Translations under genes and position numbers: made by a program
Notes under the pieces: generated by a model
The model's input: only the letters and a program-made list of their open reading frames with translations
What the model was told of the DNA's origin: nothing
Database searches by the model: none
IMG/VR virus record: IMGVR_UViG_3300029705_000157
Strand: one strand, 5' to 3'
Length of the DNA: 55,561 nucleotides
From: a virus
Shown here: piece by piece, positions 233 through 55,561 of the stretch
Layout of the letters: each line of letters begins with the position of its first letter
Position numbering within the stretch: the first letter of the stretch is position 1

Positions 233-614
233 TTTCTTCCCACCCACAATCTATAAGATTGAATTTACAAGTTTCATAATTTCTATAGAATATACCATCT
301 AAAAACAATGGCTTTCCTGTTGTATCACTTGGATACATCGTAATTGTATGTCTTTTGTTGTCGTCCCCGGTAAATGTTACTGAAACAAAAAACGGCTCCA
401 ATGCTCTTTTCATTTCAGCCCATGTTTCTGCATCTAATCCACCCCATTGCAGATTGTTAATCTTCCAAAGCCTACGACCGACCAACTGACCTATTACAGC
501 ACCATTGGCATTTCTTCCGGCATCTACGTTTTGAGAATGAACAATTTCCATTCCCGGTGCCGGACACGGAAATCTCACCCCATTTACAATTAAAAAATCC
601 GATTCTCGTTTCAT
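225..614 (-). CDS. Small tail protein of unknown function, in the position after the tape measure where a distal tail protein usually sits
   Basis: 129-aa ORF directly downstream of the tape measure gene. Its stop overlaps the start of the next tail gene. The call rests on synteny only. Confidence 0.4.
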   Translation of the reverse strand: MKRESDFLIVNGVRFPCPAPGMEIVHSQNVDAGRNANGAVIGQLVGRRLWKINNLQWGGLDAETWAEMKRALEPFFVSVTFTGDDNKRHTITMYPSDTTGKPLFLDGIFYRNYETCKFNLIDCGWEEND

Positions 615-3846: not shown

Positions 3847-3941
3847 TTTCTCACCTCGCATATAAAAAAATAGAGATACCAAACAAGCCTACTCAGTGTC
3901 ACCTCTCACTTTTCGACTTATAAATTTTTGGTATCTCTTTG

Positions 3942-16639: not shown

Positions 16640-16712
16640 TGGGCCATGTAGGACTCGAACCTACAATTCCAGGAATCAAAATCCTGTGCCGTACCGTTTT
16701 GGCTATATCGCT
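16640..16712 (-). tRNA. tRNA-Gln(UUG)-like element whose acceptor stem does not pair (truncated or pseudo-tRNA)
   Basis: Minus strand: AGCGATA TA GCC AAAACGGTAC GGC A CAGGA TTTTGAT TCCTG GAATT GTAGG TTCGAGT CCTAC ATGGCCC A. The D, anticodon and T arms fold. Only 1 of 7 acceptor pairs forms. Confidence 0.45.
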
Positions 16713-38272: not shown

Positions 38273-39268
38273 CTACCTTCCTGTACTTCCGAATCCGTTA
38301 TCGCCACGTTCGGTTTCGTCTAATCTGTCAACTTGTACCAATTGCACATCTAATGCTTTCTGGAATACTATTTGTGCAACTCGTTCTTTCGGAACAATAA
38401 TTTTTACATTGTCTGTATCGTTGTGAACAGGCAATCCAACACTTCCACGATAATCACTGTCTATGACCGATACACATGTTGCTGGACGCAAACCATGCTT
38501 TGTTGATAATCCACTTCGTGCATATACTGCACCAAAATAGTTTTTAGGTATCTCAAATGCAATATTTGATTGAATCAATACTGTTTCGTGCGGTCTTATT
38601 TCAACTGGTTTATCAATATCAGCAAATAAATCATATCCTGCAGCACCTATACTCTGTTTATGTGGGATAATTGCCGTTTCAGTCACTTTTTTAATTTTTA
38701 TTAGTTCTGGTTCTTCGCTAACAAATTGTCCTTTTTCATTTCTTTTATTTGGATTCAATTTATTGTGAAGCATTCTATGCGCACCACGTTCCATTACTTC
38801 AAGATTTTCTTTTCTATTATCTTTCCTGTCGAAGTTCTTATGATGAACATCGTAACCAGATTTTAGATACAATTTTTCGCCTATCTGAATGGAATTTTCT
38901 GGCGTCAACAAGTATTGTTCTGCTATCAAACGGTGTTCAAACACCCATCCACCATTGTCACAAAAAGGATGCTCATGGTTTCGTATCATAACGTATCCAT
39001 AAGAATTTTTTCTGATATCACCTTTCCAGGAAGCATTCTTTTTCCCCTTAATTCCGTATTGATGGTTTCCTTTTCCTTTCATATATTCTTTCTTTGCATC
39101 ATTTTGACATTTCTTGGAACAGTAATGTGTTTTATTCCGTTTCAATGCACTTGGTTTTAAATGAAATCTTTTTCCACACATATTGCACTCTGTATTATTC
39201 CATTTGTCTTCATCATCTAAAACTACTTTAATTTGCACTTCAAGTTCCCTCCTGTTTAAAACGGACAT
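38273..39268 (-). CDS. dut: HNH endonuclease domain fused to dUTPase
   Basis: N-terminus: Zn finger CNMCGK...CSKKC and HNH VHHKNFDRKDNRKENLEV..AHRMLH. C-terminus: dUTPase motifs AAGYDL, ARSGLS, VIDSDYRG and GFGSTG. It is a single uninterrupted ORF. Confidence 0.8.
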   Translation of the reverse strand: MSVLNRRELEVQIKVVLDDEDKWNNTECNMCGKRFHLKPSALKRNKTHYCSKKCQNDAKKEYMKGKGNHQYGIKGKKNASWKGDIRKNSYGYVMIRNHEHPFCDNGGWVFEHRLIAEQYLLTPENSIQIGEKLYLKSGYDVHHKNFDRKDNRKENLEVMERGAHRMLHNKLNPNKRNEKGQFVSEEPELIKIKKVTETAIIPHKQSIGAAGYDLFADIDKPVEIRPHETVLIQSNIAFEIPKNYFGAVYARSGLSTKHGLRPATCVSVIDSDYRGSVGLPVHNDTDNVKIIVPKERVAQIVFQKALDVQLVQVDRLDETERGDNGFGSTGR

Positions 39269-39957
39269 AAGTCCTTTCTTAATTCAATTTCTAATCCTTT
39301 TCTCGCATAGTCCACATAAGCGTTTTTAGCGACTTTTTTTATCTCATTGACACATTCTTCGGGTTCGCACGTTTCTCCGCCCATATGGAGCAATAACACG
39401 GTCTTAAGATTATTTGTTGCATTTACTTCTATAAAATTCTTGCAAGTTTCCAGTGAGCAATGCCCTTTTATCTTGTGTTCATAATTCGGCAAATCTCTAT
39501 TTACCAGTTCCGTCTGATAATTGCATTCAATCAAAATGTGGTCCACTTTCATATTTGCGAATCTGTACTTGCAATACTCAAAATCCGTCATGTACAAAAT
39601 TTTTTGATCATCCGCTTCAATCAAGAATCCATAGTTCGGTGTCTCATTATGCGGAAGTTCGAAAGTTGTTATCATGAATTTTCCCAAATAACATCTTCGG
39701 TAGTCACATAAATTCTTATGAAGATATGGGGTAAATACCATTATTCCCATTCGTTTAAAAGCCTCGACACATTTTGAATGGTCCTGATGGGAATGGCTTA
39801 CTGCCACACCCACAATCTTTGTTATGTTATAATCCAAACCCTTTTTGATATCCTTAATCGGTATACCGCAATCCAAAATCAATGTTTCGTTTTCTGTTGA
39901 TAACAGATAGCAGTTTCCCGATGAACCAGTGGATAATGTTTTAAGTGTTAGCATCAT
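39256..39957 (-). CDS. Metallo-beta-lactamase fold hydrolase/nuclease
   Basis: HxHxDH motif in VAVSHSHQDHSK. Confidence 0.7.
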   Translation of the reverse strand: MMLTLKTLSTGSSGNCYLLSTENETLILDCGIPIKDIKKGLDYNITKIVGVAVSHSHQDHSKCVEAFKRMGIMVFTPYLHKNLCDYRRCYLGKFMITTFELPHNETPNYGFLIEADDQKILYMTDFEYCKYRFANMKVDHILIECNYQTELVNRDLPNYEHKIKGHCSLETCKNFIEVNATNNLKTVLLLHMGGETCEPEECVNEIKKVAKNAYVDYARKGLEIELRKDLCPF

Positions 39958-40823
39958 TACTCCTTCATAAATTCCGGAACATCTCCAGTTTCAACCACTT
40001 CCGCATCAATCACTGTTTCTTCAAAATCCACTGAATTTGCGTTCTGTTCAATATCGTACGCCACATCTTCAGCGACCATATCCACATTTTCCAATTCCTC
40101 AGATTTCTCATAAGTTGAAACAGCAAACACATCTCCGTACTGCTGCACAATCTGTTTACAAGCTCTTGATGTGACTGTTTTCTTTGCCATCATGTCCGTA
40201 AACTCTTTGTGTGTGCCGGAATTTTCCTTGTAACCAAACCCCTTACGCCATGCGGTCTTAATCTGAGCAAAGTTCATAACTTCCATATAAGTGCTACCAT
40301 CGGATAACTTCACAACGCAGTAAGCACCGATGATTTTGTCAAGGTTAATGTTTTGGAAACTCTGTTTGTGGCAATCAAGAATCTTTCTACCATTTTCGAT
40401 ATGGTATTCAAATATATCTCCATCATAGATAACCTCTGCATCAATACTGACTGCTCCATATCTGTGAGCCATTGCCTTGTGTCCGTGATAAGATACCTGA
40501 CAATTCAGCTTTCCGCCGTAAGCAATCGGATAGCATTGTTTTTTCTGCATGTTAAGACCCATTGTAACCATATCCATAAGAGTGTTTGCGATGCTCGCCT
40601 GTGAGCAAGTTTCCAGTACACTCTTTCCGTTTTTATCATTTGTTTCTTTCAAGATAAGATACGCCCCCATTAAAGCATTCGTAGGGTTGTAATCTTTTGG
40701 AAATGTCAATCCGTATTTTTCCTTTTCTTTCAACTGTGCTGACAATCCATCAATAAACGCATTGTTTACTACTAATGAAGCGTTTTGATTGCCCTGTGCC
40801 TGTAACTCTGCTTTTGTAGCCAT
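39957..40823 (-). CDS. recT: RecT-family single-strand annealing protein
   Basis: CYPIAYGGKLNCQVSYHGHKAMAHRYG...IIGAYCVVKLSDGS...MAKKTVTSRACKQ pattern with an acidic C-terminus. Confidence 0.75.
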   Translation of the reverse strand: MATKAELQAQGNQNASLVVNNAFIDGLSAQLKEKEKYGLTFPKDYNPTNALMGAYLILKETNDKNGKSVLETCSQASIANTLMDMVTMGLNMQKKQCYPIAYGGKLNCQVSYHGHKAMAHRYGAVSIDAEVIYDGDIFEYHIENGRKILDCHKQSFQNINLDKIIGAYCVVKLSDGSTYMEVMNFAQIKTAWRKGFGYKENSGTHKEFTDMMAKKTVTSRACKQIVQQYGDVFAVSTYEKSEELENVDMVAEDVAYDIEQNANSVDFEETVIDAEVVETGDVPEFMKE

Positions 40824-40826
40824 AAT

Positions 40827-41852
40827 TCATACCTCCAATAATTCTTTTACCAATAAATCCATTGAATGACATAGTTTAATGCAATTTCCATGCAACGCAT
40901 GATTCTTCCACGCATTGTACTTTTCAAAAAACTTTTGTTCAGACATCTTTCCGTCCTTAACAGCCTTAGCCCATACCCTTATCTTTTTTCGGATTCTACG
41001 CTTGTTTTCTCCCGACAACTTTCTTATGTATTTACCGTCTTTTGTTATGTAATGATGAAAACCAAGGAACCTTAATCCATTTTTGAACGGAACTATCTGT
41101 GTCTTTCCGTTCAATTCCAGTTTCAAATCTGATAACAAATTTTCTATTTCCTTAAGGCATTTCTTTAAATAATCCTTATCATGGAAAATCAAGTAGAAAT
41201 CATCCATGTATCGTCCGTACAGTTCGATTCCTAATTTCTCGGTTATCATGTGATCCATTCCATCAAGCATTAACAGTGCATACACCTGAGCAACTTGATT
41301 TCCTAATGGAAGTCCTAAACCGTCTGTGCTATCAATAAAAAGATGATTTAACCATTTTGTGTATTCGTCTGGAAAATAACTGTCCACAATCTTTTTCAAA
41401 ATCTCATGGTCTATTTGGTAGAAAAACTTCTTAATATCACATTTGAGAATCCATCCGTCAAGACCATGTGATTTGTAAAACTGCAACATCTGCTCTTTCA
41501 AACAATCCATCCCGAAATGAGTGCCTTTTCCAATCTGCCCGGCATAGTTTGTCCTTATAAATATATCGGACAATCTCGGATGCAGTATTTCATCACATAA
41601 ACAATGCTGCACCACTTTGTCCTTAAAAGAACAAGATTTAATCAATCTTTCTTTTGGTTCGTAAATCATAAATTCATTGTATGGATTGATTTTGTATGTA
41701 CGATTTTCAAGCTGTTCCTTTAACATGTGGAGTCCTTCAAGACTCATTGTTTGAAACCTCGCACAACTTCCATTATTCGACTTACCGGATTTTGCTTTCT
41801 TATAAGCCTTGTATAGATTTTCAAAACTGCATACAATACTTTTGTCATCCAT
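40827..41852 (-). CDS. DGR-type reverse transcriptase
   Basis: RT motifs ILKCDIKKFFYQID, GLPLGNQVAQVYALLML (the DGR-typical LGxxxSQ-like motif 4) and YGRYMDDFYLI (YMDD). It lies directly downstream of Avd and the TR. Confidence 0.9.
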   Translation of the reverse strand: MDDKSIVCSFENLYKAYKKAKSGKSNNGSCARFQTMSLEGLHMLKEQLENRTYKINPYNEFMIYEPKERLIKSCSFKDKVVQHCLCDEILHPRLSDIFIRTNYAGQIGKGTHFGMDCLKEQMLQFYKSHGLDGWILKCDIKKFFYQIDHEILKKIVDSYFPDEYTKWLNHLFIDSTDGLGLPLGNQVAQVYALLMLDGMDHMITEKLGIELYGRYMDDFYLIFHDKDYLKKCLKEIENLLSDLKLELNGKTQIVPFKNGLRFLGFHHYITKDGKYIRKLSGENKRRIRKKIRVWAKAVKDGKMSEQKFFEKYNAWKNHALHGNCIKLCHSMDLLVKELLEV

Positions 41853-41950
41853 ATTAAAAATTCCTTTGTATTTACCCTTTTAGGGAGGGTCGCACACCTT
41901 TTTGTATCTTGTACTGATTTCGGCTTATTGCCTACTCTGACTGCCTGTTT

Positions 41951-42026
41951 GATACAGAATGGGCGAACCCCGTTGTTGTTATTGTAGTTGTTGTTGTTGA
42001 TGTTGCCGGACGGCGAAACAACGGTT
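41951..42026 (-). repeat. DGR template repeat (TR)
   Basis: Coding strand: GTT GTT TCG CCG TCC GGC AAC ATC AAC AAC AAC AAC TAC AAT AAC AAC AAC GGG GTT CGC CCA TTC TGT ATC. It is non-coding, lies between Avd and the RT, and matches three gene 3' ends. Confidence 0.9.
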
Positions 42027-42049
42027 TTTACGGTGTGCAACCTATAGCT

Positions 42050-42421
42050 TTATCTTTGTCTATCTTTTGTTCTCCAGGCAATCGACATACGCTTAATATC
42101 AGTTACCATCTTTGACCAGTATTCCATTCTTTGTTTGTTTATTATGTTTAGTTTTACGGATAATTCTATGTAAAACAGTAACTGATCGCAGTATGTTATC
42201 GCCCTAGTCTGCAATTCTAATCGATGTCTTTTGTAATCCCTTATATCCGTTCTGTTTGCTTCTTGAAGATATTCATAAATCTCAAGTGATTTATTCTGCA
42301 TCTTATCCACTAAAGAAAATCTATATTTCTTCGGATATGTATTGCAATTTGAAGTAACTCGAAGCGTATGTTCGGCAAGTTCCATTGATTTTAGAATTAC
42401 TTTTAAATCTGTATCCGACAT
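42050..42421 (-). CDS. avd: Accessory variability determinant (Avd, four-helix-bundle family)
   Basis: 123-aa basic helical protein between the target gene and the TR. The position and size are canonical for Avd. Confidence 0.8.
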   Translation of the reverse strand: MSDTDLKVILKSMELAEHTLRVTSNCNTYPKKYRFSLVDKMQNKSLEIYEYLQEANRTDIRDYKRHRLELQTRAITYCDQLLFYIELSVKLNIINKQRMEYWSKMVTDIKRMSIAWRTKDRQR

Positions 42422-43027
42422 TTAATCATCCTCGGATTCAAAGAGATCAGATGAGAAGATGCAAAATGGGCGAACCCCGAGGCTGCCATTGCAGCCGTCG
42501 TCGTAGAAGCGGCCGGACGGCGAAACAACGCGTACCCATCTACTATCATCGTTGCAGGCTGTACTGTCCGCTGTGATAAGCCACCACCAATAACCGGCGT
42601 TCGGAATGTATTCTCTGTACTTTCTATATTCATCCACATTCAATAAGGAAACCTTATCTTCACAACGACCATATTCTTTCTGACCGTCCATTGATAATAA
42701 GTCTCTTTCAAATGATACAATGTTTTCTTCTCCAACCTCTTTTTCCAGTTTTTCAAGAAATTCCGAGTTCAGATATTTTCTTAAACTGCTATTCGACCAG
42801 TTATTGCAAGAAGAATCAAATTTCATATCTTCCGGCAATTTTTCGGAAAGACACAAGTAACCATTCTCTGTAATATCAAGAATTTTACACTCCAAATCAG
42901 CAAGAGTAAAAGTATCCCCAACTTCCAGTTTTTTTTGAATTTCCTTGATTGGTTTACTCGTGATTTTTGAAACAATCTTTTCGAGTTCTGCGAGTCTTGA
43001 TTCTATTGTTTTTGCTTTTACTGCCAT
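42422..43027 (-). CDS. DGR target protein 1 (coiled-coil N-terminus, C-type-lectin-fold-like C-terminus carrying VR1)
   Basis: C-terminus GYWWWLITADS...VVSPSGRFYDDGCNGSLGVRPFCIF. No signal peptide. The W..SSLRKYLN motif is shared with its paralogues. Confidence 0.85.
   Translation of the reverse strand: MAVKAKTIESRLAELEKIVSKITSKPIKEIQKKLEVGDTFTLADLECKILDITENGYLCLSEKLPEDMKFDSSCNNWSNSSLRKYLNSEFLEKLEKEVGEENIVSFERDLLSMDGQKEYGRCEDKVSLLNVDEYRKYREYIPNAGYWWWLITADSTACNDDSRWVRVVSPSGRFYDDGCNGSLGVRPFCIFSSDLFESEDD
42461..42530 (-). repeat. Variable repeat VR1
   Basis: Same length as the TR. There are 14 mismatches, all at TR adenines: CGC TTC TAC GAC GAC GGC TGC AAT GGC AGC CTC. Confidence 0.9.
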
Positions 43028-43028
43028 A

Positions 43029-43661
43029 TCATTTATCCCCTTTCGATACAAAGATATTAGATTTTAAGATACAAACCGGGCGAACCCCGCCGTCGTCATT
43101 GCAGCCGATGCCGTCGTAGATGCAGCCGGACGGCGAAACAACGGACATACGATACTTATATCCACGTTCCGCACTAGACCATGGCGTACATGTCCACCAC
43201 CAATCGTCAAGCTCTTTATTGACGATCAATTCATTGTACTCTCGTGCTTCATCAAAAGTGATCGGACGAACCTTGCATATGCACGATTCAAATTCATGCT
43301 GCATATCCACAGATGTCAAATCAACTTCGTGTTCCACAATGTTTTCTGCCCCAATAGATTCACTTATAATAGGTAGAATCTCTGATTCGATTTTTTTCTT
43401 TAAATTTGATTTCCCGTAATCTCTAGCATCAAAATCAAAAACAACGTCTTCCAACATAAATCCTTTGGAAATCACTTTTGTTTTTCCAAGCGATTCATAT
43501 TGCTTCAAAACAATAAAATCATGATCGCCAATTTTAAATGTATCTCCCGGTAATAGTTCCGACAATGCAACATCTGTTGAACTACACTTGCACTTACAAT
43601 TTTTCTCTTTTTCTTCTAATACCTTTACAAGTTCTTTTGCCATTTCTAATTCTTTGCTCAT
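43029..43661 (-). CDS. DGR target protein 2 (paralogue carrying VR2)
   Basis: C-terminus DDWWWTCTPWSS...VVSPSGCIYDGIGCNDDGGVRPVCI. No signal peptide. Confidence 0.8.
   Translation of the reverse strand: MSKELEMAKELVKVLEEKEKNCKCKCSSTDVALSELLPGDTFKIGDHDFIVLKQYESLGKTKVISKGFMLEDVVFDFDARDYGKSNLKKKIESEILPIISESIGAENIVEHEVDLTSVDMQHEFESCICKVRPITFDEAREYNELIVNKELDDWWWTCTPWSSAERGYKYRMSVVSPSGCIYDGIGCNDDGGVRPVCILKSNIFVSKGDK
43071..43146 (-). repeat. Variable repeat VR2 (one codon longer than the TR)
   Basis: TGC ATC TAC GAC GGC ATC GGC TGC AAT GAC GAC GGC. With a one-codon gap in the TR, every mismatch falls on a TR adenine. Confidence 0.8.
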
Positions 43662-43680
43662 TCCATTTCCCTCTCTTTGC

Positions 43681-43968
43681 TTAAAATACAATTAATGTGA
43701 CTGACAAAAATCCAATAAACCATACAATCAAGGTATATATAATATCTGTTATCAGTTCTTCTATTAATTTTTCTGTTTTTCTCCTGTTCGTAGGTAAAAA
43801 CCATAAAACAATTAAAGAAAACGCCCATCCTTGCCAAAACGTAAATGTTCTCAAATCAAACAATTGGCATATTATGTTGTTCCAAAGATAAATTGTTACA
43901 AAGCCGGTAAGCACAAAATCAATAAGATATAAAATAATTCCTATTAAAGCCTTTGCTGTTTTTTTCAT
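43681..43968 (-). CDS. Small multi-pass membrane protein
   Basis: 95 aa with three hydrophobic helices. Confidence 0.4.
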   Translation of the reverse strand: MKKTAKALIGIILYLIDFVLTGFVTIYLWNNIICQLFDLRTFTFWQGWAFSLIVLWFLPTNRRKTEKLIEELITDIIYTLIVWFIGFLSVTLIVF

Positions 43969-45909
43969 TTACGCCACCTCCACTTTTAATTCTTTATCTT
44001 CTGAAACACACATCATAATCAGCTGGCAATCCATATCAATCTTCGCTTTTGATTTGGAGTCAAGACATTCCGCATTATCAAGAAATACCGGGTAAAATCT
44101 TCCGTAAAACTTCTGCAAGCCTTTAACAATATCCAGCTTTGCGAGAACTTCCAAACCAGTATTTGTACATTCGCCAAATCGCTTTCCGTTAATTGTCGGA
44201 ATGCAAATTTCCTTGTATTCGCCGTTTTTCTGATATTCAAAAAATTGCCATTTTACAACATCAAAATTACTATTAATCTCTTCCGTAAGAAGATTGTTCT
44301 TCATCTTTCCGATTTCTTTAATCTGATCAAGAATATCTTCACAATCGGCAAGTGCCTGTTCATACTCGATCTGCTTTTTACGGAGTTCTGCGATCTGTTC
44401 ATCAATCGCATCGTTATTAGACGCACGGAAAATCTCGCTTTTTACTTCATCCAGTTTGGATCGTATTTCTTTTTCTTCGATTTTCAGCTGACTTCTTGTA
44501 TCATCTGCAATGTTTCCAGCAATCATGTGTGATTCTTTTTCTTTAATCTCAGAAACAATGCGTTTATATTCGTCTGTATCGGAAATGTTGATTTCATCTG
44601 GAAGTTTTTTAATTTCTGTATCAACTGCATTCCAAAGAATGTGCAATTCATTTTCGTGTTCTTTGAGTCGTTCACGTTCTTCTTTTAAACCCTTTAACGC
44701 TTCCGTGTATTCCACAACAGCATTCTTGAAAATAGTTCCGCAGTCTGTAATCTTTTGCATTTCCGTAGATTTTCTTGCAGCGAAATTACTTCTTAATTTC
44801 TCCACATCTTCTACAGGCAATGGTTGCCCACACAAAGAACAAATTGCAGAATTTTCATCAAAAAATGTTTCGTTCCACTTGGACCATTCAACTCTTGTGT
44901 CGGAAAGTTTCTTATTAAAAGATTCAATCTGTCGTTCGGTATCTGATATGGTCATTTTGTTCGCCGTTATCTTTCCTTCATTAGCTTTAATCTGATAATC
45001 CAAATCACGTTTTTCGGAATTTAATTTGTTTCTCTTTTCCTGTAATTCAGCATTTGCACTTCTCTGAATATCGCCAAGTTTGAATTTTAATTCCATGATT
45101 CCATCAGACATTTTTTTCATTTCTTCGTACCGTTTGGAAATGTCCTGCTGCATACTCTCATTTTTTTCTAATAATTCTTCAAAGTGTCGCTTTTTTAATT
45201 CCAAATCAGAAACATCTACACGGTATTTAGCTGATTCCAGCCCAGCAATCTTAGCCATAATAATCTCTCCGTCTTTGCCGTAATCTTCACGGATTTTACG
45301 CATTGTAGACTTCTGCATTGCTTCAATTTCACTCATTTTGTAATTAGCAAGGAGTTCCGCAACCTTTTGTGTGCGTGACTGCATTTTTGCAATTTCCAAA
45401 TCCGTATAAGAATTTCTTGCCATGGAAAAGAGAATAGACCTTGCGATTTCATCTCTTGTCTTTTTCTCAAACGTGTATCTCAGAAACATATCCGGATGAC
45501 TGAGTATCAGCATTTTTTCAAAGTCAATACCAATATCTTCAAGATAAGATTTAAAATCACGCTCTGTCTTTTCAACAGCATTCACTTCATAGCTGTTCGT
45601 GATAGTCACACGTGTTTTATCCTTGGAAACCTTGCGTTTCTGCATTTTAGAAACCGTTACTGGTTTATTTCCAACCATAAATTCCAATGTTACCGTAGGT
45701 GTACATTCTCTTCCGTCATTTGGACGGATATTAGGATTGCTTTTCAAATCGTAGCTTTTATCAAAAAACAACCAATAAAAAGCATCTGCCATGGTTGTTT
45801 TCCCTGCACCGTTACATCCCGATATAACAGTTTTGTCTTTAAATATGTATTTTTCTTGAGTTGCGCCCTTGAAGTCTTGCAGACGCATTTCTAATAGCTT
45901 TGTTTTCAT
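43969..45909 (-). CDS. SMC/SbcC-like AAA ATPase with a long coiled coil
   Basis: Walker A GCNGAGKTT at the N-terminus, about 350 aa of heptad-rich sequence with a CxxC (CSLCGQ) hinge, and Walker B-like VFLDNAECLD at the C-terminus. Confidence 0.7.
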   Translation of the reverse strand: MKTKLLEMRLQDFKGATQEKYIFKDKTVISGCNGAGKTTMADAFYWLFFDKSYDLKSNPNIRPNDGRECTPTVTLEFMVGNKPVTVSKMQKRKVSKDKTRVTITNSYEVNAVEKTERDFKSYLEDIGIDFEKMLILSHPDMFLRYTFEKKTRDEIARSILFSMARNSYTDLEIAKMQSRTQKVAELLANYKMSEIEAMQKSTMRKIREDYGKDGEIIMAKIAGLESAKYRVDVSDLELKKRHFEELLEKNESMQQDISKRYEEMKKMSDGIMELKFKLGDIQRSANAELQEKRNKLNSEKRDLDYQIKANEGKITANKMTISDTERQIESFNKKLSDTRVEWSKWNETFFDENSAICSLCGQPLPVEDVEKLRSNFAARKSTEMQKITDCGTIFKNAVVEYTEALKGLKEERERLKEHENELHILWNAVDTEIKKLPDEINISDTDEYKRIVSEIKEKESHMIAGNIADDTRSQLKIEEKEIRSKLDEVKSEIFRASNNDAIDEQIAELRKKQIEYEQALADCEDILDQIKEIGKMKNNLLTEEINSNFDVVKWQFFEYQKNGEYKEICIPTINGKRFGECTNTGLEVLAKLDIVKGLQKFYGRFYPVFLDNAECLDSKSKAKIDMDCQLIMMCVSEDKELKVEVA

Positions 45910-46096
45910 TTTCTTTCCTCCATTCTTCTATCCAGCAATCAATCTCCCCTAATACAATCCAAATCAATATTCCAGCAAGAATACCGACCAGCCAAAGATT
46001 ATCTTTAACCTCCCACCACGAATCAACTGTGGTTATCGAATAACCGCTTATGGCTCCTATAATCATGTTTTTAATGGTTTCTTTAATAAGTTTCAT
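45839..46096 (-). CDS. Small membrane protein
   Basis: 85-aa ORF with two hydrophobic segments. Its 3' end overlaps the ATPase start. Confidence 0.3.
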   Translation of the reverse strand: MKLIKETIKNMIIGAISGYSITTVDSWWEVKDNLWLVGILAGILIWIVLGEIDCWIEEWRKENENKAIRNASARLQGRNSRKIHI

Positions 46097-46407
46097 AATG
46101 CCCTTCTCCTAAACTTATCTAATGTTTTTTTTACCCCTGTCCTTTTGTGAATAACCTTCAAATAAAAATCCGTTACGTCATAACACATCCATTCTTTTGG
46201 ATTCATATAATGTGCAGACACACATTCTTTTTGACTACGTGTTAACCTCTTCGGCTGTTTCATTTTCCACCACTCCTTTTCGGAAACCTTTGAAAAATTC
46301 TCTTAAGGCAAACAATCCCAAGCACGCAATTTGTAAAACAAGCATACCAACCGCACCAACGATAATTCCTGTTGCAAAATTCATATTCGTCACCTCTCAT
46401 TCTTCAA

Positions 46408-46905
46408 TCAAGATTCAAAGATGGAAGATGGAAAGATACAAACCGGGCGAACACCGTTGCGGCTGCGGCAATTGAAGATGTCGAGTATGCGGCCGGACGG
46501 AGAAACAACGGCGTGCAAATATTTATATCCATTACATGGCGTGCTCCATGGTGTAATCAGCCACCACCAGTCATTCATGTTAGGTAAATATTTTCTGTAT
46601 CTCTGATACTCATGCTCGGTAATCAGCGACGCAAAGTCCTTACAAGTTCCGTATTCCGTCTGTCCATCAACCGACATCAGATCACGTTCAAACTCAACCA
46701 GTTTAACGCCTGCATCTTCAATCTTTTTACAAAAATCCCCATTCAGATATTCTCTAAGGCTTGATTTTCTCCAGTCGTTTGAATCATCATCAAAAACCTT
46801 ATCCCCGATTGATTCTTCGGTAATCGCCAAATAGCCCTGTTCTGTTTTATCCAGGATTCTCCATTTAAGTCCTGCGATTTCTTTAATTGTTCCAATGTTA
46901 TTCAT
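46408..46905 (-). CDS. DGR target-like protein 3 (remote paralogue carrying VR3)
   Basis: WRKSSLREYLN...NDWWWLITPWST...VVSPSGRILDIFNCRSRNGVRPVCIF. Confidence 0.75.
   Translation of the reverse strand: MNNIGTIKEIAGLKWRILDKTEQGYLAITEESIGDKVFDDDSNDWRKSSLREYLNGDFCKKIEDAGVKLVEFERDLMSVDGQTEYGTCKDFASLITEHEYQRYRKYLPNMNDWWWLITPWSTPCNGYKYLHAVVSPSGRILDIFNCRSRNGVRPVCIFPSSIFES
46435..46513 (-). repeat. Variable-repeat-like VR3 (diverged)
   Basis: GTT GTT TCT CCG TCC GGC CGC ATA CTC GAC ATC TTC AAT TGC CGC AGC CGC AAC GGT GTT CGC CCG. One extra codon and at least four non-adenine mismatches to the TR. Confidence 0.65.
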
Positions 46906-46921: not shown

Positions 46922-47686
46922 TTATGCTGTTAAAAACTTATTCACAAAATACACTTGTCCGCGACCTGTAATTTTCGGCGTGCGAGTGATTCTTACCGAA
47001 CCATCGGGATTTTGAACACTGGATTCCTTGATTTCAAATAATCCCTGCTCCATGTACTTCTGTTTCGGCATATTGTATGAACTGCCCTGTTTCATCAGAT
47101 ATCCGTTATCACGCATCCACTGGAACAATCGTTTCTGACCGATTTTCACACCGTTCTGACAAATCAGCTTGGCCAAATCTCCGATAAGGATTGAAGTGTG
47201 ACTTGTGGACACCGCATCAGCAAAAATAGTCTTTGGCTTGTCAGCTTCAATCTGCATCTGCTGTCTGTGGATAATTGCATCACGTTCAGCGATTTTGTTT
47301 TGAGCGACCAGCAACGCCTTAGCCATCAGTTCATCATCTGTCATGGTTTCTTGTCCGGCTATATAACCACCGTGTTTTCTGATTGACGGAAGGACTTCTG
47401 ATGTTACCCAGTGTTTAAATCGTTTGGCTGATTCTAATTTGCTTCCAAGAATAAGTCCGTACATTCCTGACTCATTGATTACGATAGTTTCCTTATTCTG
47501 ATTCCCATCAAAAATCATAAGTTTTGTTCTATCTTCTTCGTCAACATGTCTGTTAATATCTCGACTACCGTTTTGGTACCCCAGCTTATCAGCAACATCC
47601 TTACCAACAAAATACACTTCATTATTCAGTTGTACCGTTCGGATTTTCCCGAACTCAGCATTTTCAAAAATCTTGATTTCGTTCAT
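46922..47686 (-). CDS. Antirepressor (Bro-N domain + KilAC/ANT C-terminal domain)
   Basis: IKIFENAEFGKIRTV...YFVGKDVADKLGY...NESGMYGLILGSKLESAKRFKHWVTSEVLPSIRKHG. The C-terminus ends TPKITGRGQVYFVNKF. Confidence 0.85.
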   Translation of the reverse strand: MNEIKIFENAEFGKIRTVQLNNEVYFVGKDVADKLGYQNGSRDINRHVDEEDRTKLMIFDGNQNKETIVINESGMYGLILGSKLESAKRFKHWVTSEVLPSIRKHGGYIAGQETMTDDELMAKALLVAQNKIAERDAIIHRQQMQIEADKPKTIFADAVSTSHTSILIGDLAKLICQNGVKIGQKRLFQWMRDNGYLMKQGSSYNMPKQKYMEQGLFEIKESSVQNPDGSVRITRTPKITGRGQVYFVNKFLTA

Positions 47687-47800
47687 TCGCTCACCCCCTA
47701 CACCATCGGGATAAGACTTGCGATAAGAACACCAGTCAATACCCCGATGCAAGGAATGAGAAATTCGATTGCCATGATTAGAATGTCTTTCTTTCTCATG

Positions 47801-47989: not shown

Positions 47990-48018
47990 AGTATAGTCCC
48001 TGAGTTACATTTTGTCAA
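47990..48018 (-). promoter_or_regulatory. Leftward early (lytic) promoter
   Basis: On the minus strand: -35 TTGACA (48018-48013), 17-nt spacer, -10 TATACT (47995-47990). Confidence 0.6.
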
Positions 48019-48028
48019 TAACTTTTTG

Positions 48029-48057
48029 TTGACTTAGGGACTTTTTTTTGATATAGT
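48029..48057 (+). promoter_or_regulatory. Rightward promoter for the XRE-type regulator
   Basis: -35 TTGACT (48029-48034), 17-nt spacer containing T8, -10 TATAGT (48052-48057). It is flanked by the repeat CTTTTTGTTGAC (47967 and 48022) and the inverted repeat GTCCCTNAG (47996 and 48033). Confidence 0.6.
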
Positions 48058-48076: not shown

Positions 48077-48439
48077 ATGAACGAACGTATAAAGGAATTA
48101 AGAAAAGAACTCGGATTAACACAAGAAGAGTTTTCTTCGAGAATTGGATTATCAAGAAATTTCATTGCGCAAGTAGAACTTGGAACCAAAACGCCGTCCG
48201 ATAGAACCGTGTCAGATATTTGCAGAGTATTTTCCGTAAATGAAGAATGGTTAAGAAATGGAACAGGCAACAAAGAACAGTCAATGAGCCGGAATGAAGA
48301 AATCCAAACTTTTGCGAACCAAGTAATGTCAGATATGGACGAATCCATAAAGAAAAGATTGCTTATAGCGTTATCTAAATTGAATGAAGATGATTGGAAG
48401 ACGATCGAAAAAATCGTTGACGAATTATCAAAAAAATAG
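48077..48439 (+). CDS. XRE-family HTH regulator (CI-like repressor candidate at the switch)
   Basis: ELRKELGLTQEEFSSRIGLSRNFIAQVELG. It is divergent from the early promoter. Confidence 0.75.
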   Translation: MNERIKELRKELGLTQEEFSSRIGLSRNFIAQVELGTKTPSDRTVSDICRVFSVNEEWLRNGTGNKEQSMSRNEEIQTFANQVMSDMDESIKKRLLIALSKLNEDDWKTIEKIVDELSKK

Positions 48440-48910: not shown

Positions 48911-49702
48911 TTGAAAAACGAAAAATCAAAAAATATTCGCTTGAATTTGGTGTCAAATCACGAAAATTACATGGAAAGTTTCCGTGATAACATCGGAATT
49001 TTACGAACTGATTTTGGTTGGTCTGTGAGAGTTTTAGCAGAAAAAGCTAATATATCAGAAGACACGCTTCAAACATTTTTAAAGGGAAAATCTAAAGACT
49101 GCAATTTGTCAACGGCGGTAAAATTAGCAAGGGCGTTTGGAATTACAGTAGATGAATTGATTGGTGCAGAAACTATGGACCCACAGACTCAAGAATCCGT
49201 AGCTATGTCTTCTAATCTAAAAGACCATCATAGATATGTTATTCGTGCTTACGTTAAGCATCAATACAAGATACATGGTGATGTTCCTAAGACAAGCAAA
49301 CAGATTTCAGTAATGATGCCAGAATGCCATCACGGATATTTGAAAACTACTAATGTTACCGAAGCATTAAACATAGACCATCTGTACGATAGCACACGAT
49401 CAAAAGTATGCCTTGGTTTACGTGTTCCATGCGCACACTACGAACCATATTATATGCAAAACGAAATTCTTTTACTTGCCGCAGACCGTGACGGACTTAA
49501 CAATGAACGATGTGTCATTACTCATGCTGGAAATTTCTACATATGCATCAAGCGTATTATAATTGAAAATGGCAAAAAATCGGTAAAATATTTGTCGCTC
49601 ATGGACGGAAGAAACGTGCTATTTGACCATGATGAAATAGATGATAAGATTGGATATGTTGTTGGATTCTTGTACCCAGATGGCGCATGGGGTGTTCGAT
49701 AA
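48911..49702 (+). CDS. HTH (XRE) protein with a LexA/CI-like C-terminal domain that lacks an obvious Ser-Lys dyad
   Basis: LAEKANISEDTLQTFLKGKSK HTH. The C-terminal beta-rich domain has no GxSM-type motif. TTG start after GGAGGGA. Confidence 0.6.
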   Translation: MKNEKSKNIRLNLVSNHENYMESFRDNIGILRTDFGWSVRVLAEKANISEDTLQTFLKGKSKDCNLSTAVKLARAFGITVDELIGAETMDPQTQESVAMSSNLKDHHRYVIRAYVKHQYKIHGDVPKTSKQISVMMPECHHGYLKTTNVTEALNIDHLYDSTRSKVCLGLRVPCAHYEPYYMQNEILLLAADRDGLNNERCVITHAGNFYICIKRIIIENGKKSVKYLSLMDGRNVLFDHDEIDDKIGYVVGFLYPDGAWGVR

Positions 49703-50285: not shown

Positions 50286-50545
50286 TCACTCACCCCCAGT
50301 AAGATACGACCTGCTTCGGCATATTCATCATTGATGTCGATATCAGTGGTAGGTTCGTCAATTTCCGTAAACTTATTTGGACTATCCGTATCAATACAAG
50401 CGTAAGTAGCAACACCATCCGTAAGAACTTTTCCTTTGTCTGCAATAAGTCTATAGACTTCCGTGTAGTCACCATCTGGCTTTTCGGTAGATACTGTTAC
50501 CTTGCCCGCTTCTCGTTCATATCTGTATAATTTTTTAATCTCCAT
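50282..50545 (-). CDS. Hypothetical protein
   Basis: 87-aa ORF, translationally coupled on both sides. Confidence 0.35.
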   Translation of the reverse strand: MEIKKLYRYEREAGKVTVSTEKPDGDYTEVYRLIADKGKVLTDGVATYACIDTDSPNKFTEIDEPTTDIDINDEYAEAGRILLGVSE

Positions 50546-51843
50546 TAGTTCACCTCATCTAACACTTCAAGTTTTGTGACACAGAAACCATTAAAGGATA
50601 AAGGTATGCAATAAATACCAGCTTTTGGTATCGTTATATTCGGGAATCCATCATAGGATAATTCCGTATTATCTATAGATACGCCAATAATGGCTCCGTT
50701 AAATTTCATCCATGTACTAGGTTGACTTGATGATGTTGAATCGTCTACATCTTCTTCGAAAACTGTTATATTTCCGTTATTAATAGTTGTTATTTTAATG
50801 GATTTATGCGTAAATATCGGATAATAGTCACACACCTTATAGATAGTCACATTCATAACATCTGTAGCAATTTCAACATGTTCTAACCCATCAGTTGTAA
50901 CACCATCCCATTCAAGAACAGTCTTGTATTCATCAGATGGTTCTACATAGTTATAATTAATAGTAGCATTGGTAGCACCCCAAGGAGCGTTTGATACTTC
51001 GCCTTCTGACCATGGTACGTTGATAGTAAGGAGGTTGGTGCAGTCTTTAAAGGCATCTGATGATATTGATCGAGGCTTTACAGTAAATGTCATTTGTGTT
51101 AAATCAGTACATCCACGAAAAGCTTGTGTACTGATTTGTGTAATTCCTTCGGGCAAAGATGTTAATGCTAGACTTGTACAGTTTTGAAAAGCATACGAAC
51201 TGATGTCGTTTAGCGTTGCTGGTAATGATGTTAATGCTAGACTTGTACAGTCACGAAAAGTGCTATTGTTGATAGTTGTAATTCCTTCGGGCAAAGATGT
51301 TAATGCTAGACTTGTACATTTTTGAAAAGCATACGAACCGATGCCGTTTAGCGTTGCTGGTAATGATGTTAATGCTAGACTTGTACAGTTTGAAAAAGCG
51401 TTACTGTTGATACGTGTAATTCCTTCGGGCAAAGATGTTAATGCTAGACTTGTACAGTTTTGAAAAGCATACGAACTGATGTCGTTTAGCGTTGCTGGTA
51501 ATGATGTTAATGCTAGACTTGTACAGTTTGAAAAAGCGTTACTGTTGATACTTGTAATTCCTTCGGGCAAAGATACTGATATCAGTTTCTCACATCGTTC
51601 GAAAGCACTTGTGCCTATTTTTGTAGTTCCTTCTGGTATAACAACATTAACAATCGTTCTCTCTACAATGTTTTTCAGTATTTCAGCCCATTCGTCATCG
51701 CTAGAACCACCGCTTTGAATCGCCATAATAGCACCACTCATTTGAGATGGCTTATAGGTTTCTTCTGTACCATTTTTTTCACGGATAGCATCTGCAATGT
51801 CTCTCATATAACTTTCATCTATAAATACATTAGCCATTACCAC
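50545..51843 (-). CDS. BspA-type leucine-rich-repeat protein (receptor-binding candidate)
   Basis: Repeated 23-aa units such as [23 protein letters not shown] and [23 protein letters not shown]. It lies in the tail-fibre block. Confidence 0.75.
51140..51553 (-). repeat. Three near-identical tandem 138-bp coding repeats (each encoding two LRR units)
   Basis: Units start at 51140, 51278 and 51416, with a partial fourth at 51554. The first ~111 nt of copies 1 and 3 are identical. Confidence 0.9.
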
Positions 51844-52826
51844 GCCACCTCGTTTCCATTTACTACTTGATTGAAAATTTCAGTGATAATTTCGGTTTTA
51901 TCGGATTCCGTGAAGTAATCTACACCTTTTTGTGGGGTGTAGCCGGGCTGACCTGGTTCGCCTGGTATGCCTTGTGGGCCTTCTGGTCCTTGTGGTCCAG
52001 GTTCTCCAATGTCTCCTTTATCGCCTTTTTCTCCTCGCGGTCCTTGTTCTCCAGTTTCTCCTTGAACACCTTGAATTCCCTGTTCGCCTTGTGGTCCTAC
52101 TTCTCCTCTTTCTCCTTGAGTGCCTTGTTCACCCTTGTCGCCCTTTTGACCTCTTGAACCATTTCGAACTTCAAAAGTGGATTTTTCGCCATCGGTTTTT
52201 GTGACAGTGACTACATTAACACCGCCATCTTCCGTTGATGTAGTGGTCTGAATCACGGAATCGATACCGACACCATCTTTTCCATCAGTGCCACTTCCGC
52301 TTCCACCACCCGATTGATTCACTGCTTCAAATTCAATCGGTTTTCCGTTTTCGCCTACGGATTTTACGGCTATTACTTGCCCTACTTCTGCAAATTCTGG
52401 AATAGATATTTTATTTCTTATTGCAACTTCAAGTTGCTCCAAGAACGATAATTGTGAAGGACTTGAATATCCATTAGGCTCAGGTTTGGACTGAACGTAC
52501 ATGGTTATCTTACGGACTGTCCTTGCTGAATCCTCCCCTATAAGATACACAAACGCATATGCTTCATAAAATGTCTTTTTTGTTTCTTCTGCTTCTGTAA
52601 CCAGTGTCGGAATGCTGACAATAATATCTCCGTCAACAACCTCGCCAAGCATACGTTCCGCTTCTCCGTTCTTTTCCGTTAAAGAAAAATGGACTTCGAC
52701 CATATCCGTATATACGTCAAGTCCACTTATTTTCAGTTTTGTTCCAATATCCCATTGCACCACCCCATCTTGCAGAGTGGTGCTATATTCATCTGTTTTA
52801 AATATTACTGGAATTAATTTTTCCAT
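51837..52826 (-). CDS. Collagen-like tail fibre protein
   Basis: 24 uninterrupted Gly-X-Y triplets ([28 protein letters not shown]...GEPGQPG). Confidence 0.75.
51942..52160 (-). repeat. Gly-X-Y collagen-like coding repeat
   Basis: Residues 223-295 of the 329-aa ORF. Confidence 0.85.
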
Positions 52827-53332: not shown

Positions 53333-53743
53333 TTATACCCTCATGCCTTTCTGATTGCCTAATCTGAACGGCAATCTGTATAAATTTGCTTTGTGACTGA
53401 TTAATTTATTGTGAAGTGCCAATGTTACACTTTCGATTCGGTTATACTCCGAAGCATCTGGAACCAATCCATTATCACGATACGCTCTGTGCGTTGTATC
53501 TATCCGATATGTGGACAAATTAAGGTTGAATAGATTGTTCTCTATGTTGTTGAATTCTCTTGCGAAAATGAGGTCATTTTCGACTTTGTCAAGACCCATA
53601 TCAATAAATGGAATTCCGACAAATAACTCATCGGCCATTTCCTTTACAACCATGAGATTTCCTTTTATTCGGTTGTAATCCTCATAATTAAAATAATCAG
53701 TGCTTTTCCAGTCCGTTTTCGGTTCAATCCATGCAGACATCAA
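53333..53743 (-). CDS. Tail/baseplate-associated hypothetical protein
   Basis: 136-aa ORF, overlapping the stop of the upstream gene. Confidence 0.35.
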   Translation of the reverse strand: MMSAWIEPKTDWKSTDYFNYEDYNRIKGNLMVVKEMADELFVGIPFIDMGLDKVENDLIFAREFNNIENNLFNLNLSTYRIDTTHRAYRDNGLVPDASEYNRIESVTLALHNKLISHKANLYRLPFRLGNQKGMRV

Positions 53744-55561
53744 ATCGCCCCCTTTGTCATGTTGTACGCTCGCCTAAGCCCAAGATTACCGCGAAATGCG
53801 CCATTAAACGTCAATTCATTGGAAGTTACCTCCACTTGAAGATTTGGTATCTTACTGCTTTCCATACGTATGATGTCGGTTGCATTAAGTCTTGGTTCTC
53901 CACGGAAATTCACGTCATAAGTAACATTGTTTGCGTAATAGTTTCCTATCCATTCCGCAATAATAGCAGCATGTTCTTCTGTTGCTATAAGTGGATTGGA
54001 AAGAAGTTTTGATTCCCCTACTGGGTTTATCTGTCGGGAATAATAAACTTCATCCTCTATTTCCTCAGGTTCTCCCTCGGCGTTTTCAAAAAACGAATAT
54101 ATCTTCACACGAACATCTTTTACTCGTTTTTCTTTGTATCCTACTGGATTTTGATACATATTATTGCGCTTTAAGAAATAGTCCGATAAACCACCAAATG
54201 ATACTTTGTTTACAATCACGCGACTATTCGGAGATGCTTTTGTAAAACGTATGTACATTCTATCAAAATCATCGAATTGCTCACTGATTATTGTTGTCTT
54301 TTCCACATTGTCTACAACAATTTTTTTAACAATTTCATTATCATTAAATGTTTCCACAACAAACTGTTTAGGCATGTTTCCGCCAAATTCCAGCACAAGT
54401 CCGTGATATGTGTTTGCATATTCCAAATCAATCCCTATTGATGGATTAAATAAAAATTCTCCATTTTGGTCTGATATTTCATTGCTTACAAAACCAGCAT
54501 TAAGATATTCCTCGTTTTCTGGCATAAATCTCATGCTGCCATCGGCTTTCATAAAATCAGGTGTAAGTTCCGCATAAACAATATCTGAACCTATAAAAAT
54601 ATTTTCAAGGTTTCCCCATTCCGCAATAGGTGTGGATGATAATTTTGTTTCTTCACGATCAATTAAAACCGCAAAGTTCGGAACGACCATTACAACACCA
54701 TATTCATCTTGTTTTATCTTGCATCTGCATGCGTTTGCTAATATCTGCAAGCACTGCTTATGTGATGCCTCTGGCATTGGATTTATCAAATTAAATTCTT
54801 TCAAGTATTCATCCACATAATACTCGTCTGATTCAAGTCCGGCATCTTTAAAGATACTTATTGCTTCGTCATATGCGGTACGTTCATATATTCTGTTTCC
54901 AAGACTGTACACATTATCCATGTGATACATTCTGTCGTAAGATGTCAACGTAACAACATTATTTTGCCTTTTCCAATCTTTCAAATAAGTTGTCGCTATC
55001 TGATGCCATTCTATTGAACCATCTGCAAGTGTTATTCCAAATGAAAATGTAATCTTTTGCATGGTTTCCAGATAATCAATAAAAGAATTATTGTCATCCA
55101 CATCGAATTTGTCCTCCTTGTCGTAAAAAGAAAAGGAACATCTGTAACTTGATAATTCATCCGATATCGAAGAAACTATTTCATTTATTGAAAATGTTTT
55201 TGTGTCTTCGTTGGTGTATTGTAGTCCTACGCCCATCAGAATGCGCTTTATTCGCAGTCTTTTGTTTCCACCGACCATTTCTAATGGCACAATCTGAATG
55301 TAGCTTATATCGCCGAATACGTCCTCTGTGACAAATCTTTCTGAATCGTTTGTGTACTGCACTGTACCCTGGTTTGTTACAAGGTTAAATCTTGTCGGAT
55401 ATGCGCTTCCAAACTCAAGCGTAATTCCTTTTATGTAATACGATTTTTGAAGAACAATCATTATGGAACCCATTATTTCTTCCGTAACAATTCCATTGCT
55501 TTTTAATTGCTCAAGATTGCTTTCTGGAACAAAATACATTTTCCCATCAGCACGCATATAG
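53740..55561 (-). CDS. Large tail tip/baseplate protein (its true start wraps to 232 at the other window end)
   Basis: 605-aa ORF that is the second gene after the tape measure. The frame continues upstream across the circular junction. Confidence 0.6.
   Translation of the reverse strand, partial: YMRADGKMYFVPESNLEQLKSNGIVTEEIMGSIMIVLQKSYYIKGITLEFGSAYPTRFNLVTNQGTVQYTNDSERFVTEDVFGDISYIQIVPLEMVGGNKRLRIKRILMGVGLQYTNEDTKTFSINEIVSSISDELSSYRCSFSFYDKEDKFDVDDNNSFIDYLETMQKITFSFGITLADGSIEWHQIATTYLKDWKRQNNVVTLTSYDRMYHMDNVYSLGNRIYERTAYDEAISIFKDAGLESDEYYVDEYLKEFNLINPMPEASHKQCLQILANACRCKIKQDEYGVVMVVPNFAVLIDREETKLSSTPIAEWGNLENIFIGSDIVYAELTPDFMKADGSMRFMPENEEYLNAGFVSNEISDQNGEFLFNPSIGIDLEYANTYHGLVLEFGGNMPKQFVVETFNDNEIVKKIVVDNVEKTTIISEQFDDFDRMYIRFTKASPNSRVIVNKVSFGGLSDYFLKRNNMYQNPVGYKEKRVKDVRVKIYSFFENAEGEPEEIEDEVYYSRQINPVGESKLLSNPLIATEEHAAIIAEWIGNYYANNVTYDVNFRGEPRLNATDIIRMESSKIPNLQVEVTSNELTFNGAFRGNLGLRRAYNMTKGAI
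55530..55561. repeat. Terminal overlap identical to 1..32
   Basis: Exact 32-nt match. Confidence 0.9.

Follow-up and report, generated by a model that had tools for sequence, protein, structure and literature searches.

Surveys of gut phages treat diversity-generating retroelements (DGRs) as diversifying tail, receptor-binding or head-decoration proteins, and link their carriage to broad host range (PMC8144416, PMC12636319, 10.64898/2026.01.26.701711). The virus record IMGVR_UViG_3300029705_000157 of IMG/VR (55,561 nucleotides, hereafter the window) raises the question of what such an element serves when the genes that it diversifies lie among early genes. In this window, a complete canonical DGR, formed by the accessory variability determinant (Avd), the template repeat (TR) and the reverse transcriptase (RT), all on the minus strand, is embedded in an early replication/recombination operon, together with three small paralogous genes that bear variable repeats (VRs): a tandem pair directly upstream of Avd (T2 and T1) and a remote third paralogue (T3). 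Mutagenic retrohoming rewrites a loop of 11-12 codons just before the GVRP(F/V)CI end of T1 and T2 and, based on gene position, we hold with moderate confidence that these two are early non-virion proteins. A preliminary description of the window had located the same three VR-bearing genes (Table 1) and placed them early, outside the structural module and without export or anchoring signals; our analysis confirms this and extends it to more than 130 related loci, as well as to the phages nd4 and Toutatis.

Found at this locus were an RT adjoining a TR, an Avd, TR/VR mismatches confined to adenines (in VR1 and VR2) and ongoing retrohoming. The TR core contains 20 adenines and lies between CGTTGTTTCGCCGTCCGGC (5') and GGGGTTCGCCC (3'), and the repeat sits 98 nt upstream of the RT start codon. 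The GC-rich GGGGTTCGCCC is shared by the TR and the VRs at their 3' end, after which the bases diverge. An 18-nt anchor common to VRs and TR (GTTGTTTCGCCGTCCGGC, with up to three mismatches) has exactly four sites in the window, namely the TR and one per target gene, and none in 100 shuffles, which bears out the earlier assignment of VRs to the three genes; in the whole window, this anchor search found no VR in the tail genes, including those for the leucine-rich-repeat (LRR) protein and the collagen-like fibre. The Avd matches to the Pfam families bAvd and 23S_rRNA_IVP are weak and below the cut-offs. An open reading frame (ORF) of 98 amino acids that runs through the TR (41744..42040, minus strand), its translation containing VVSPSGNINNNNYNNNNGVRPFCI, was rejected as an artefact, which arises because the TR duplicates the C-terminal end of the target genes; automatic gene calling could take this ORF for a fourth target.

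Comparison of the VRs with the TR shows two targets that are live or recently live and one that is doubtful. VR1 is gapless and colinear with the TR, and its 14 mismatches in the core all fall at TR adenines, with none elsewhere; VR2 corresponds to the TR with one extra AAC codon in the AAC run, and also shows 14 adenine-site mismatches and no others. The exact Avd protein was found in ten contigs that represent this phage in different samples (99.7-100% identity); nine of these contigs match the window at the TR and at every VR that they cover. Contig L290 (99.7% identical, from another sample) carries a different VR2, AACGTCGACGGCCGCAACTACGGTAACTGCATC, which is 33 nt long, colinear with the TR and different from it only at adenines. 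Over 6.6 kb this contig shows 20 differences from the window, 18 of them within 43090..43126, and in its positions 2516..2566 (the counterpart of 43089..43124) VR2 is one codon shorter, with the adenine sites re-randomised and an in-frame product. T2 is therefore a live target, rewritten recently in this phage population. The possibility that VR2 is inactive owing to its three additional nucleotides relative to the TR was rejected in view of this contig. A length polymorphism also runs through the clade, in which TR cores of 33 nt (120 cases), 36 nt (7) and 30 nt (1) and VR cores of 33 nt (296), 36 nt (24) and 30 nt (10) occur; this suggests that the one-codon changes stem from slippage in the AAC run, either while the cDNA is made or while it homes.

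VR1 and VR3 are invariant in this small sample of same-phage contigs (VR3 is identical in the three of three that cover it). Among 18 close relatives, variability peaks exactly at both VRs (0.26 vs a median of 0.035), and in the RT-related loci just 9 of the 126 same-length VRs have any non-adenine mismatch. VR3 is one codon longer than the TR, has 2-3 mismatches outside adenines, one mismatch in the 5' anchor and a GGGG to GGTG change in the 3' element. Judged from these letters, it is probably a decayed or orphan repeat, and T3 itself is probably an orphan that came from a related lineage by acquisition or duplication. No other locus showed an extra copy of this kind after the antirepressor. 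The proximal target of a sub-clade on contigs of 70-80 kb is similar to T3. Additionally, in one relative (L028) the VRs of both tandem targets (567..599 and 1184..1216) differ in one base only; a single cDNA could have homed into both genes, or gene conversion could have acted between them.

The diversified proteins are small, acidic (pI 4.7-5.3) and contain 5-9 cysteines each, several of them invariant. All three are members of phrog_9958, a family of unknown function, and T1 is 39% identical to T2 (full length) and 50% to T3. T1 (whose true start is the ATG at 43027, in agreement with the database protein P0001) consists of a heptad-patterned N-terminal helix (residues 8-23) followed by one alpha/beta DUF6273 domain (AlphaFold2, AF2, model with pLDDT 79.5 and pTM 0.74), T2 of a short N-terminal helix and a DUF6273-like domain, and T3 of a stand-alone alpha/beta DUF6273 domain without the helix (pLDDT 84.6, pTM 0.82). 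At the Pfam gathering cut-off for DUF6273 (PF19789, 23.5 bits), T1 (38.4 bits) and T3 (37.2 bits) pass and T2 (21.8 bits) falls just under. The coiled coils once described at the start of two of these proteins stand for T1, with a heptad run in 54 of 55 orthologues, but not for T2, whose helix fails the heptad test; likewise, the motifs WWW, VVSPSG and GVRP(F/V)CI are indeed common to all three, whereas W..SSLR.YLN is missing from T2. Scaffold residues outside the VR are invariant. As previously claimed, there is no transmembrane helix or signal peptide, since none of the three has a hydrophobic segment (highest 19-residue Kyte-Doolittle mean ≤0.78), and neither a Pfam scan of the three proteins nor the AF2 models of T1 and T3 revealed an export or virion-anchoring domain or an Ig-like domain. 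The family is large: a 90%-clustered set contains 3796 homologues, whose reading frames are all open, and clustering at 50% identity leaves 1534 representatives. Most of these have 170-270 residues, the size also of most of the closest 150 cluster representatives.

The only significant match to a solved structure is the DUF6273 domain of 9qa6 (Foldseek E 7e-7 and TM 0.60 for T1, E 2.4e-5 and TM 0.65 for T3), which a profile search of the PDB also finds (E 1e-4). It forms the N-terminal domain in the Thomasclavelia ramosa IgA protease (PMC12402451), a secreted, sortase-anchored bacterial enzyme of 137 kDa which, unlike our targets, is not diversified. C-type lectin domains rank next in the Foldseek searches of T1 and T3, below significance, and Mtd, TvpA and FGE were not recovered; the C-type-lectin scaffold proposed in the preliminary description is plausible, although the similarity is not significant. 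The sequence and profile searches of the PDB returned 9qa6 only, and no solved receptor-binding protein as a relative; matches of the helix to S100 and Isd-linker entries were discarded as noise, and Foldseek matches to the TP901-1 receptor-binding protein (probability ≤0.04) were rejected. The phrog_10993 profile ("Hoc-like head decoration") matches residues 121-200 of T1 at profile positions 175-249 of 556; this identity was rejected as well, the match being limited to the last 65-80 residues, and the "head decoration" label of the family probably comes from this lectin-like part only. Automated pipelines could mislabel these early proteins accordingly. The PADLOC defence profiles gave no match for the three targets at E up to 0.01, and a plasmid search brought up DUF6273 genes from plasmids of C. 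botulinum only, in partial and uninformative matches (30%).

The early position of the DGR and its targets rests on a sigma-70-type promoter and on the tight packing of the genes behind it. This promoter is the best-scoring site within 36-50.5 kb and, judged from its position, opens the early (lytic) arm, in agreement with the lytic promoter at 48.0 kb reported before. In transcription order, the arm comprises the antirepressor (the second gene of the operon), T3, three small ORFs, an SbcC-like ATPase, a small membrane protein, T2, T1, Avd, the TR, RT, RecT, a metallo-beta-lactamase (MBL)-fold protein, an HNH-dUTPase, a single-stranded-DNA-binding protein (SSB), a C5 methylase, a replisome organiser and a primase-helicase. 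From antirepressor to SSB the junctions are of 0-35 nt or overlapping, save the Avd-RT gap that holds the TR, and those between the target genes and their neighbours are of 0-19 nt. The neighbours were correctly named in the preliminary description, with profile matches for the antirepressor, the SMC-like ATPase and RecT, the last being the continuation of the early replication/recombination operon beyond RT. A distance of 10-40 kb to the tail-fibre block had also been given, which is too large: it amounts to 3.6 kb for T3 and about 7.5 kb for T1/T2, though the tail-fibre-like genes (49.9-55.5 kb) form a separate transcription unit on the other side of the immunity switch.

Table 1. Features of the window, with positions counted from its first nucleotide.
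Feature	Position	Strand	Remarks
T1	42422..43027	-	201 aa, proximal tandem target; DUF6273 1.5e-9, phrog_9958 3.4e-51
T2	43029..43661	-	210 aa, distal tandem target; phrog_9958 2.3e-29
T3	46408..46905	-	165 aa; DUF6273 3.4e-9, phrog_9958 8.6e-46
VR1	42458..42530 (core 42479..42511, 11 codons)	-	in T1; cognate repeat
VR2	43068..43144 (core 43089..43124, 12 codons)	-	in T2; active repeat
VR3	46435..46510 (core 46456..46491, 12 codons)	-	in T3
TR	41951..42024 (core 41972..42004)	-	core AACATCAACAACAACAACTACAATAACAACAAC; within 197-nt Avd-RT spacer
Avd	42050..42421	-	phrog_3206 "Avd protein of DGR" 7.5e-21
DGR reverse transcriptase	40827..41852	-	RVT_1 3.8e-18; 43% identical to nd4 DGR RT
RecT recombinase	39957..40823	-	RecT 4.5e-35; start 3 nt past RT stop
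MBL-fold protein	39256..39957	-	directly after RecT; our Pfam scan gave Lactamase_B families only
HNH endonuclease motif fused to dUTPase domain	38273..39268	-	single 331-aa ORF
SbcC/SMC-like AAA_15 ATPase	43969..45909	-	AAA_15 5e-8, phrog_77 6.9e-47
Small predicted membrane proteins (three)	43681..43968, 45839..46096, 46235..46393	-	maximal hydropathy 2.4-2.5; flank T2 and T3
Antirepressor (Bro-N + KilAC/ANT)	46922..47752	-	ANT 4.4e-34, Bro-N 2.3e-25
Early (lytic) promoter, sigma-70-type TTGACA-17-TATACT	47990..48018	-	11/12 consensus matches
Divergent repressor-gene promoter	48029..48057	+	faces early promoter
HTH repressor-like genes (two)	48077..48439 and 48911..49702	+	
BspA-type LRR protein	50545..51843	-	LRR_5 3.8e-55; near-identical TSLALTSLP-containing repeats
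Collagen-like tail fibre	51837..52826	-	tail module, near its close
605-aa tail protein	53740..55557		tail module
Tape measure	664..3882		late gene
Major head protein	9052..9999		late gene
Portal	10669..12186		late gene
Large terminase	12994..14751		late gene

This arrangement is conserved far beyond the window. The relatives of the RT and of the capsid considered here are best matches and depend on the search pattern, and the counts from the VR-pattern scan are lower bounds. At least 99 close RT relatives are present in IMG/VR, where the best 80 loci show 70-80% identity, and the RT search also found prophages in metagenome-assembled genomes (MAGs) of Acetatifactor, Acutalibacteraceae and Eubacterium. 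The gene order repressor / ANT, ATPase, T2, T1, Avd, RT, (RecT), MBL, SSB is kept in nearly all of the best 80 loci, and two NCBI MAG prophages have the same layout. A scan for DNA encoding GVRPxCI(F/L) added at least about 120 further loci, with the cassette always among the ATPase, RecT, MBL and SSB genes at varied insertion points. The tandem pair with Avd-TR-RT thus lies among replication/recombination genes in more than 130 related loci, and in none of these does the cassette adjoin tail genes. Distal and proximal targets form two orthologous groups (65.6% and 62.5% identity within, respectively, and 36% between), both of which are present in 55 of 55 cleanly parsed loci; T1 and T2 are anciently diverged paralogues, with T2 distal and T1 proximal to Avd.

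The cassette itself is accessory, since RecT-related backbones exist (L281-L287) in which the ATPase...RecT-MBL-SSB genes come without target, Avd or RT. Six loci (L162, L164, L171, L179, L186 and L192) have tandem DUF6273 targets among replication genes with no Avd or RT adjoining; here the retroelement seems to have been lost or relocated while the targets remained. The best 80 RT relatives and the 62 capsid relatives listed have no contig in common, a pattern of mosaicism that is only suggestive of a cassette that travels with the early module and not with the virion module. Relatives of the tail protein are only eight (≤48% identity), and their flanking sequence does not extend as far as the cassette.

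Small DUF6273 targets were already known from other phages, and both the family and its targeting by DGRs have been published (PMC10743442, PMC11792537). The nd4_tgt2 and nd12_tgt2 proteins, gp24 of Toutatis and the "small target" of Lelie/CP11 belong to the same family as T1-T3 (PMC10743442; PMC11792537; bioRxiv 10.1101/2024.10.15.618418) and, like these, have a single globular DUF6273 domain with short flanking helices and a C-terminal VR; in tblastn comparisons, nd4_tgt2 is 39% and gp24 30% identical to T1. In nd4, Avd and RT follow the tail genes; some 10 kb separate them from the small target, which comes after the endolysin and a divergent gene and has exonuclease-like, SSB and DnaC genes as neighbours. 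In FP_Toutatis, gp24 is found between regulators/methyltransferases and the replication-initiation and antiterminator Q genes (upstream of antiterminator Q); it is a core gene, 17.5 kb from its TR (bioRxiv 10.1101/2024.10.15.618418). In this nd4/Toutatis type, the small protein is thus a second, remote target of a DGR whose RT lies beside tail genes and whose main target is large and Ig-containing, whereas here all the targets are small, two of them stand in tandem directly upstream of Avd, and the replication module encloses the entire cassette. The papers that describe these small targets assume or leave open a receptor-binding role and do not discuss the early-region position (PMC10743442; PMC11792537; bioRxiv 10.1101/2024.10.15.618418).

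In three lineages, therefore, the stand-alone small DUF6273 target is an early-region gene, irrespective of where the RT lies. Since the nd4 and Toutatis targets are early though their RTs are beside tail genes, simple hitch-hiking with the RT does not account for the position, and this is the strongest argument that it reflects a role of the targets themselves. New in the present work are this cross-lineage rule and the clade whose targets are solely small early-operon proteins in a conserved tandem arrangement. Within their early replication operon, the phages of this large Clostridia-infecting clade diversify solely small soluble proteins, and two unrelated phage lineages also hold a small DUF6273 target in the early region.

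The reading that we favour is built on these positions. Because the 0-19 nt junctions leave the targets no room for a promoter or terminator of their own, and because an export or anchoring domain is missing, we infer that T1 and T2 are early, soluble and not part of the virion. Expressed along with the early genes, they would be acidic binding proteins, probably oligomeric. Their ligand would differ from one host strain to another and would be met in the infected cell or after release at lysis, with the DGR keeping a library of binding specificities within the phage population; our preferred guess for this ligand would be a variable host defence or takeover target. In a narrower version, which we consider rather unlikely, the small DUF6273 proteins would be antibody-like cytoplasmic binders for counter-defence or host takeover, made first after induction or infection; the DGR would re-randomise their loop, and some genomes of each burst would neutralise the variable protein of the host, or of a rival element, in the next cell. 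If true, a phage DGR would here, for the first time, serve a purpose inside the cell and other than adsorption.

A precedent for the idea of a target outside the virion exists in Quimbyvirus, for whose DGR a second, non-structural target in a defence/counter-defence island was proposed in 2021 (PMC8008677), so that the premise of the preliminary description, according to which phage DGRs diversify tail proteins, is out of date. The likeness, drawn from gene context alone, lies in a target that is remote from the structural genes, has genes of DNA metabolism and counter-defence around it and was argued from that context to be non-structural; Quimbyvirus differs in being a Bacteroides phage with a frameshifted RT, and one of its two targets is still beside the tail fibres.

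Several points weigh against an early, non-virion role of T1 and T2. Timing and location would both be read from gene order alone, and the early placement may serve RT and Avd, which act on replicating DNA. The DUF6273 domain is elsewhere extracellular (in bacterial proteins, such as 9qa6) or at the distal end of phage proteins, among them long ones labelled tail or receptor-binding (Pioen, PMC11792537), and the carriage of DGRs by gut phages correlates with the breadth of host range (PMC12636319), which fits adsorption. Additionally, the number of cysteines and the invariance of several of them would suit an extracytoplasmic protein, and the heptad neck and head of T1 may be compared with collectins and with the small lactococcal receptor-binding proteins. 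Oligomers with such a neck-and-head layout gain avidity for repetitive surface ligands. Virion proteins likewise have no signal peptides, so that the lack of one does not discriminate. We found no published virion proteomics or transcript timing for this family.

These points lead to the alternative that T1 and T2, though their genes lie apart from the structural module, belong to the virion as accessory adhesins or receptor-binding proteins, docked as oligomers via the N-terminal helix, the early operon being merely where a mobile DGR cassette settled. We regard this as a tenable but less probable explanation. It agrees with the default of the field, in which phage DGRs diversify host-recognition proteins (BPP-1 Mtd; PMC8144416; PMC12636319), was proposed for nd4_tgt2 and nd12_tgt2 by their describers (PMC10743442), and would suit the helix-plus-head architecture, the occurrence of DUF6273 at the ends of long tail-like phage proteins (PMC11792537) and the accessory nature of the cassette, as expected of an optional adhesin. 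The comparison with BPP-1 (mtd-avd-TR-brt) is instructive here. Both DGRs have Avd, TR and RT, adenine-specific mutagenesis of a C-terminal VR, an AAY-rich template and a GC-rich element at the 3' end of TR and VR. Mtd, however, is a 381-aa trimer, encoded at the end of the tail operon, whose beta-prism and beta-sandwich domains fix it to the tail fibres, whereas T1-T3 are early-operon genes with none of these attachment domains, and neither sequence nor fold search recovered Mtd from them. A tail-block location or a virion-attachment domain, by which a receptor-binding protein would be recognised, was found for none of the three targets, and T3 has not even the helix for docking. Against this alternative also stand a cassette that in more than 130 loci never lies beside tail genes, the early small targets of nd4 and Toutatis and junctions too short for a separate promoter; the lack of shared contigs between the closest RT and capsid relatives, among the matches listed, points in the same direction, as a weak test. 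If T1 and T2 were virion parts, they would be unusual structural proteins, encoded and expressed with early genes; if they are not, a sizeable share of gut-phage DGRs would act on something besides adsorption, and the "Hoc-like head decoration" calls of annotation pipelines would be misleading.

It is also conceivable, though improbable in our judgement, that T1 and T2 act extracellularly and outside the virion, being freed at lysis or carried in vesicles of the lysogen, and bind bacterial surface glycans, mucus or immune components to the benefit of the phage population or the lysogen. DUF6273 is otherwise extracellular and the proteins are cysteine-rich; moreover, a non-virion life has been suggested for the Hoc-like, DUF6273-bearing DGR target of Mushu-like prophages, which is reported to be expressed in lysogens and to occur in vesicle proteomes without particles (10.64898/2026.05.08.723808, a 2026 preprint). 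Our genes, in contrast, stand behind a repressor-controlled lytic promoter, so that expression in the lysogen is not expected, and have no signal peptide, and the Mushu protein is of a different, Ig-containing architecture. Together with the large target of Toutatis it belongs to the tentaclins or Hoc-like targets, in which a DUF6273-type domain also bears the VR (PMC10743442; 10.64898/2026.05.08.723808), and in which Ig-like domains come after an N-terminal lectin-like VR domain and a conserved Ig anchor stands at the C-terminus, while T1-T3 have a C-terminal VR and no Ig-like domain (Pfam; AF2 models of T1 and T3). Finally, that a selfish retroelement carries the targets along as decaying passengers whose function is not under selection is highly improbable: VR3 is degenerate, some related loci keep tandem targets without an RT and the cassette is dispensable, but both groups are intact as a pair in all the parsed loci (62-66% identity within each), the scaffold is invariant outside the VR, the homologues are all open and the recent turnover of VR2 was in frame.

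Concerning the genes around the cassette, the ATPase also matches the Lamassu LmuB profile (5.2e-19) and phage SbcC-like and recombinase PHROGs, and is conserved directly upstream of the cassette in most relatives. The membrane protein before T2 matches phrog_2169 and was not found in the related loci. For a 232-aa counterpart of the MBL-fold protein (L290 and L291), the precomputed Pfam annotation includes a weak match to Anti-Pycsar Apyc1.

As for the genome as a whole, the window is the circularly permuted complete genome (about 55.5 kb) of a temperate, siphovirus-like phage of gut Clostridia, since the tail genes run on across both window ends; the hosts of its clade probably belong to the Lachnospiraceae or Acutalibacteraceae; an identical gene set is also present on a 55,719-bp contig, and nearly every gene is on the minus strand. 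A nucleotide search against annotated phages gave a single match of 266 nt at 74% identity, so that no annotation could be borrowed from a close relative. The LRR protein and the collagen-like fibre are likely the conventional receptor-binding candidates of the tail module. The tyrosine integrase gene (25213..26448) lies between the replication and packaging modules and not beside the repressor, a tRNA-Gln(TTG) gene (16640..16711) upstream of the terminase region, and a PAPS-reductase-like gene (28035..28766, minus strand) at the end of the replication arm.

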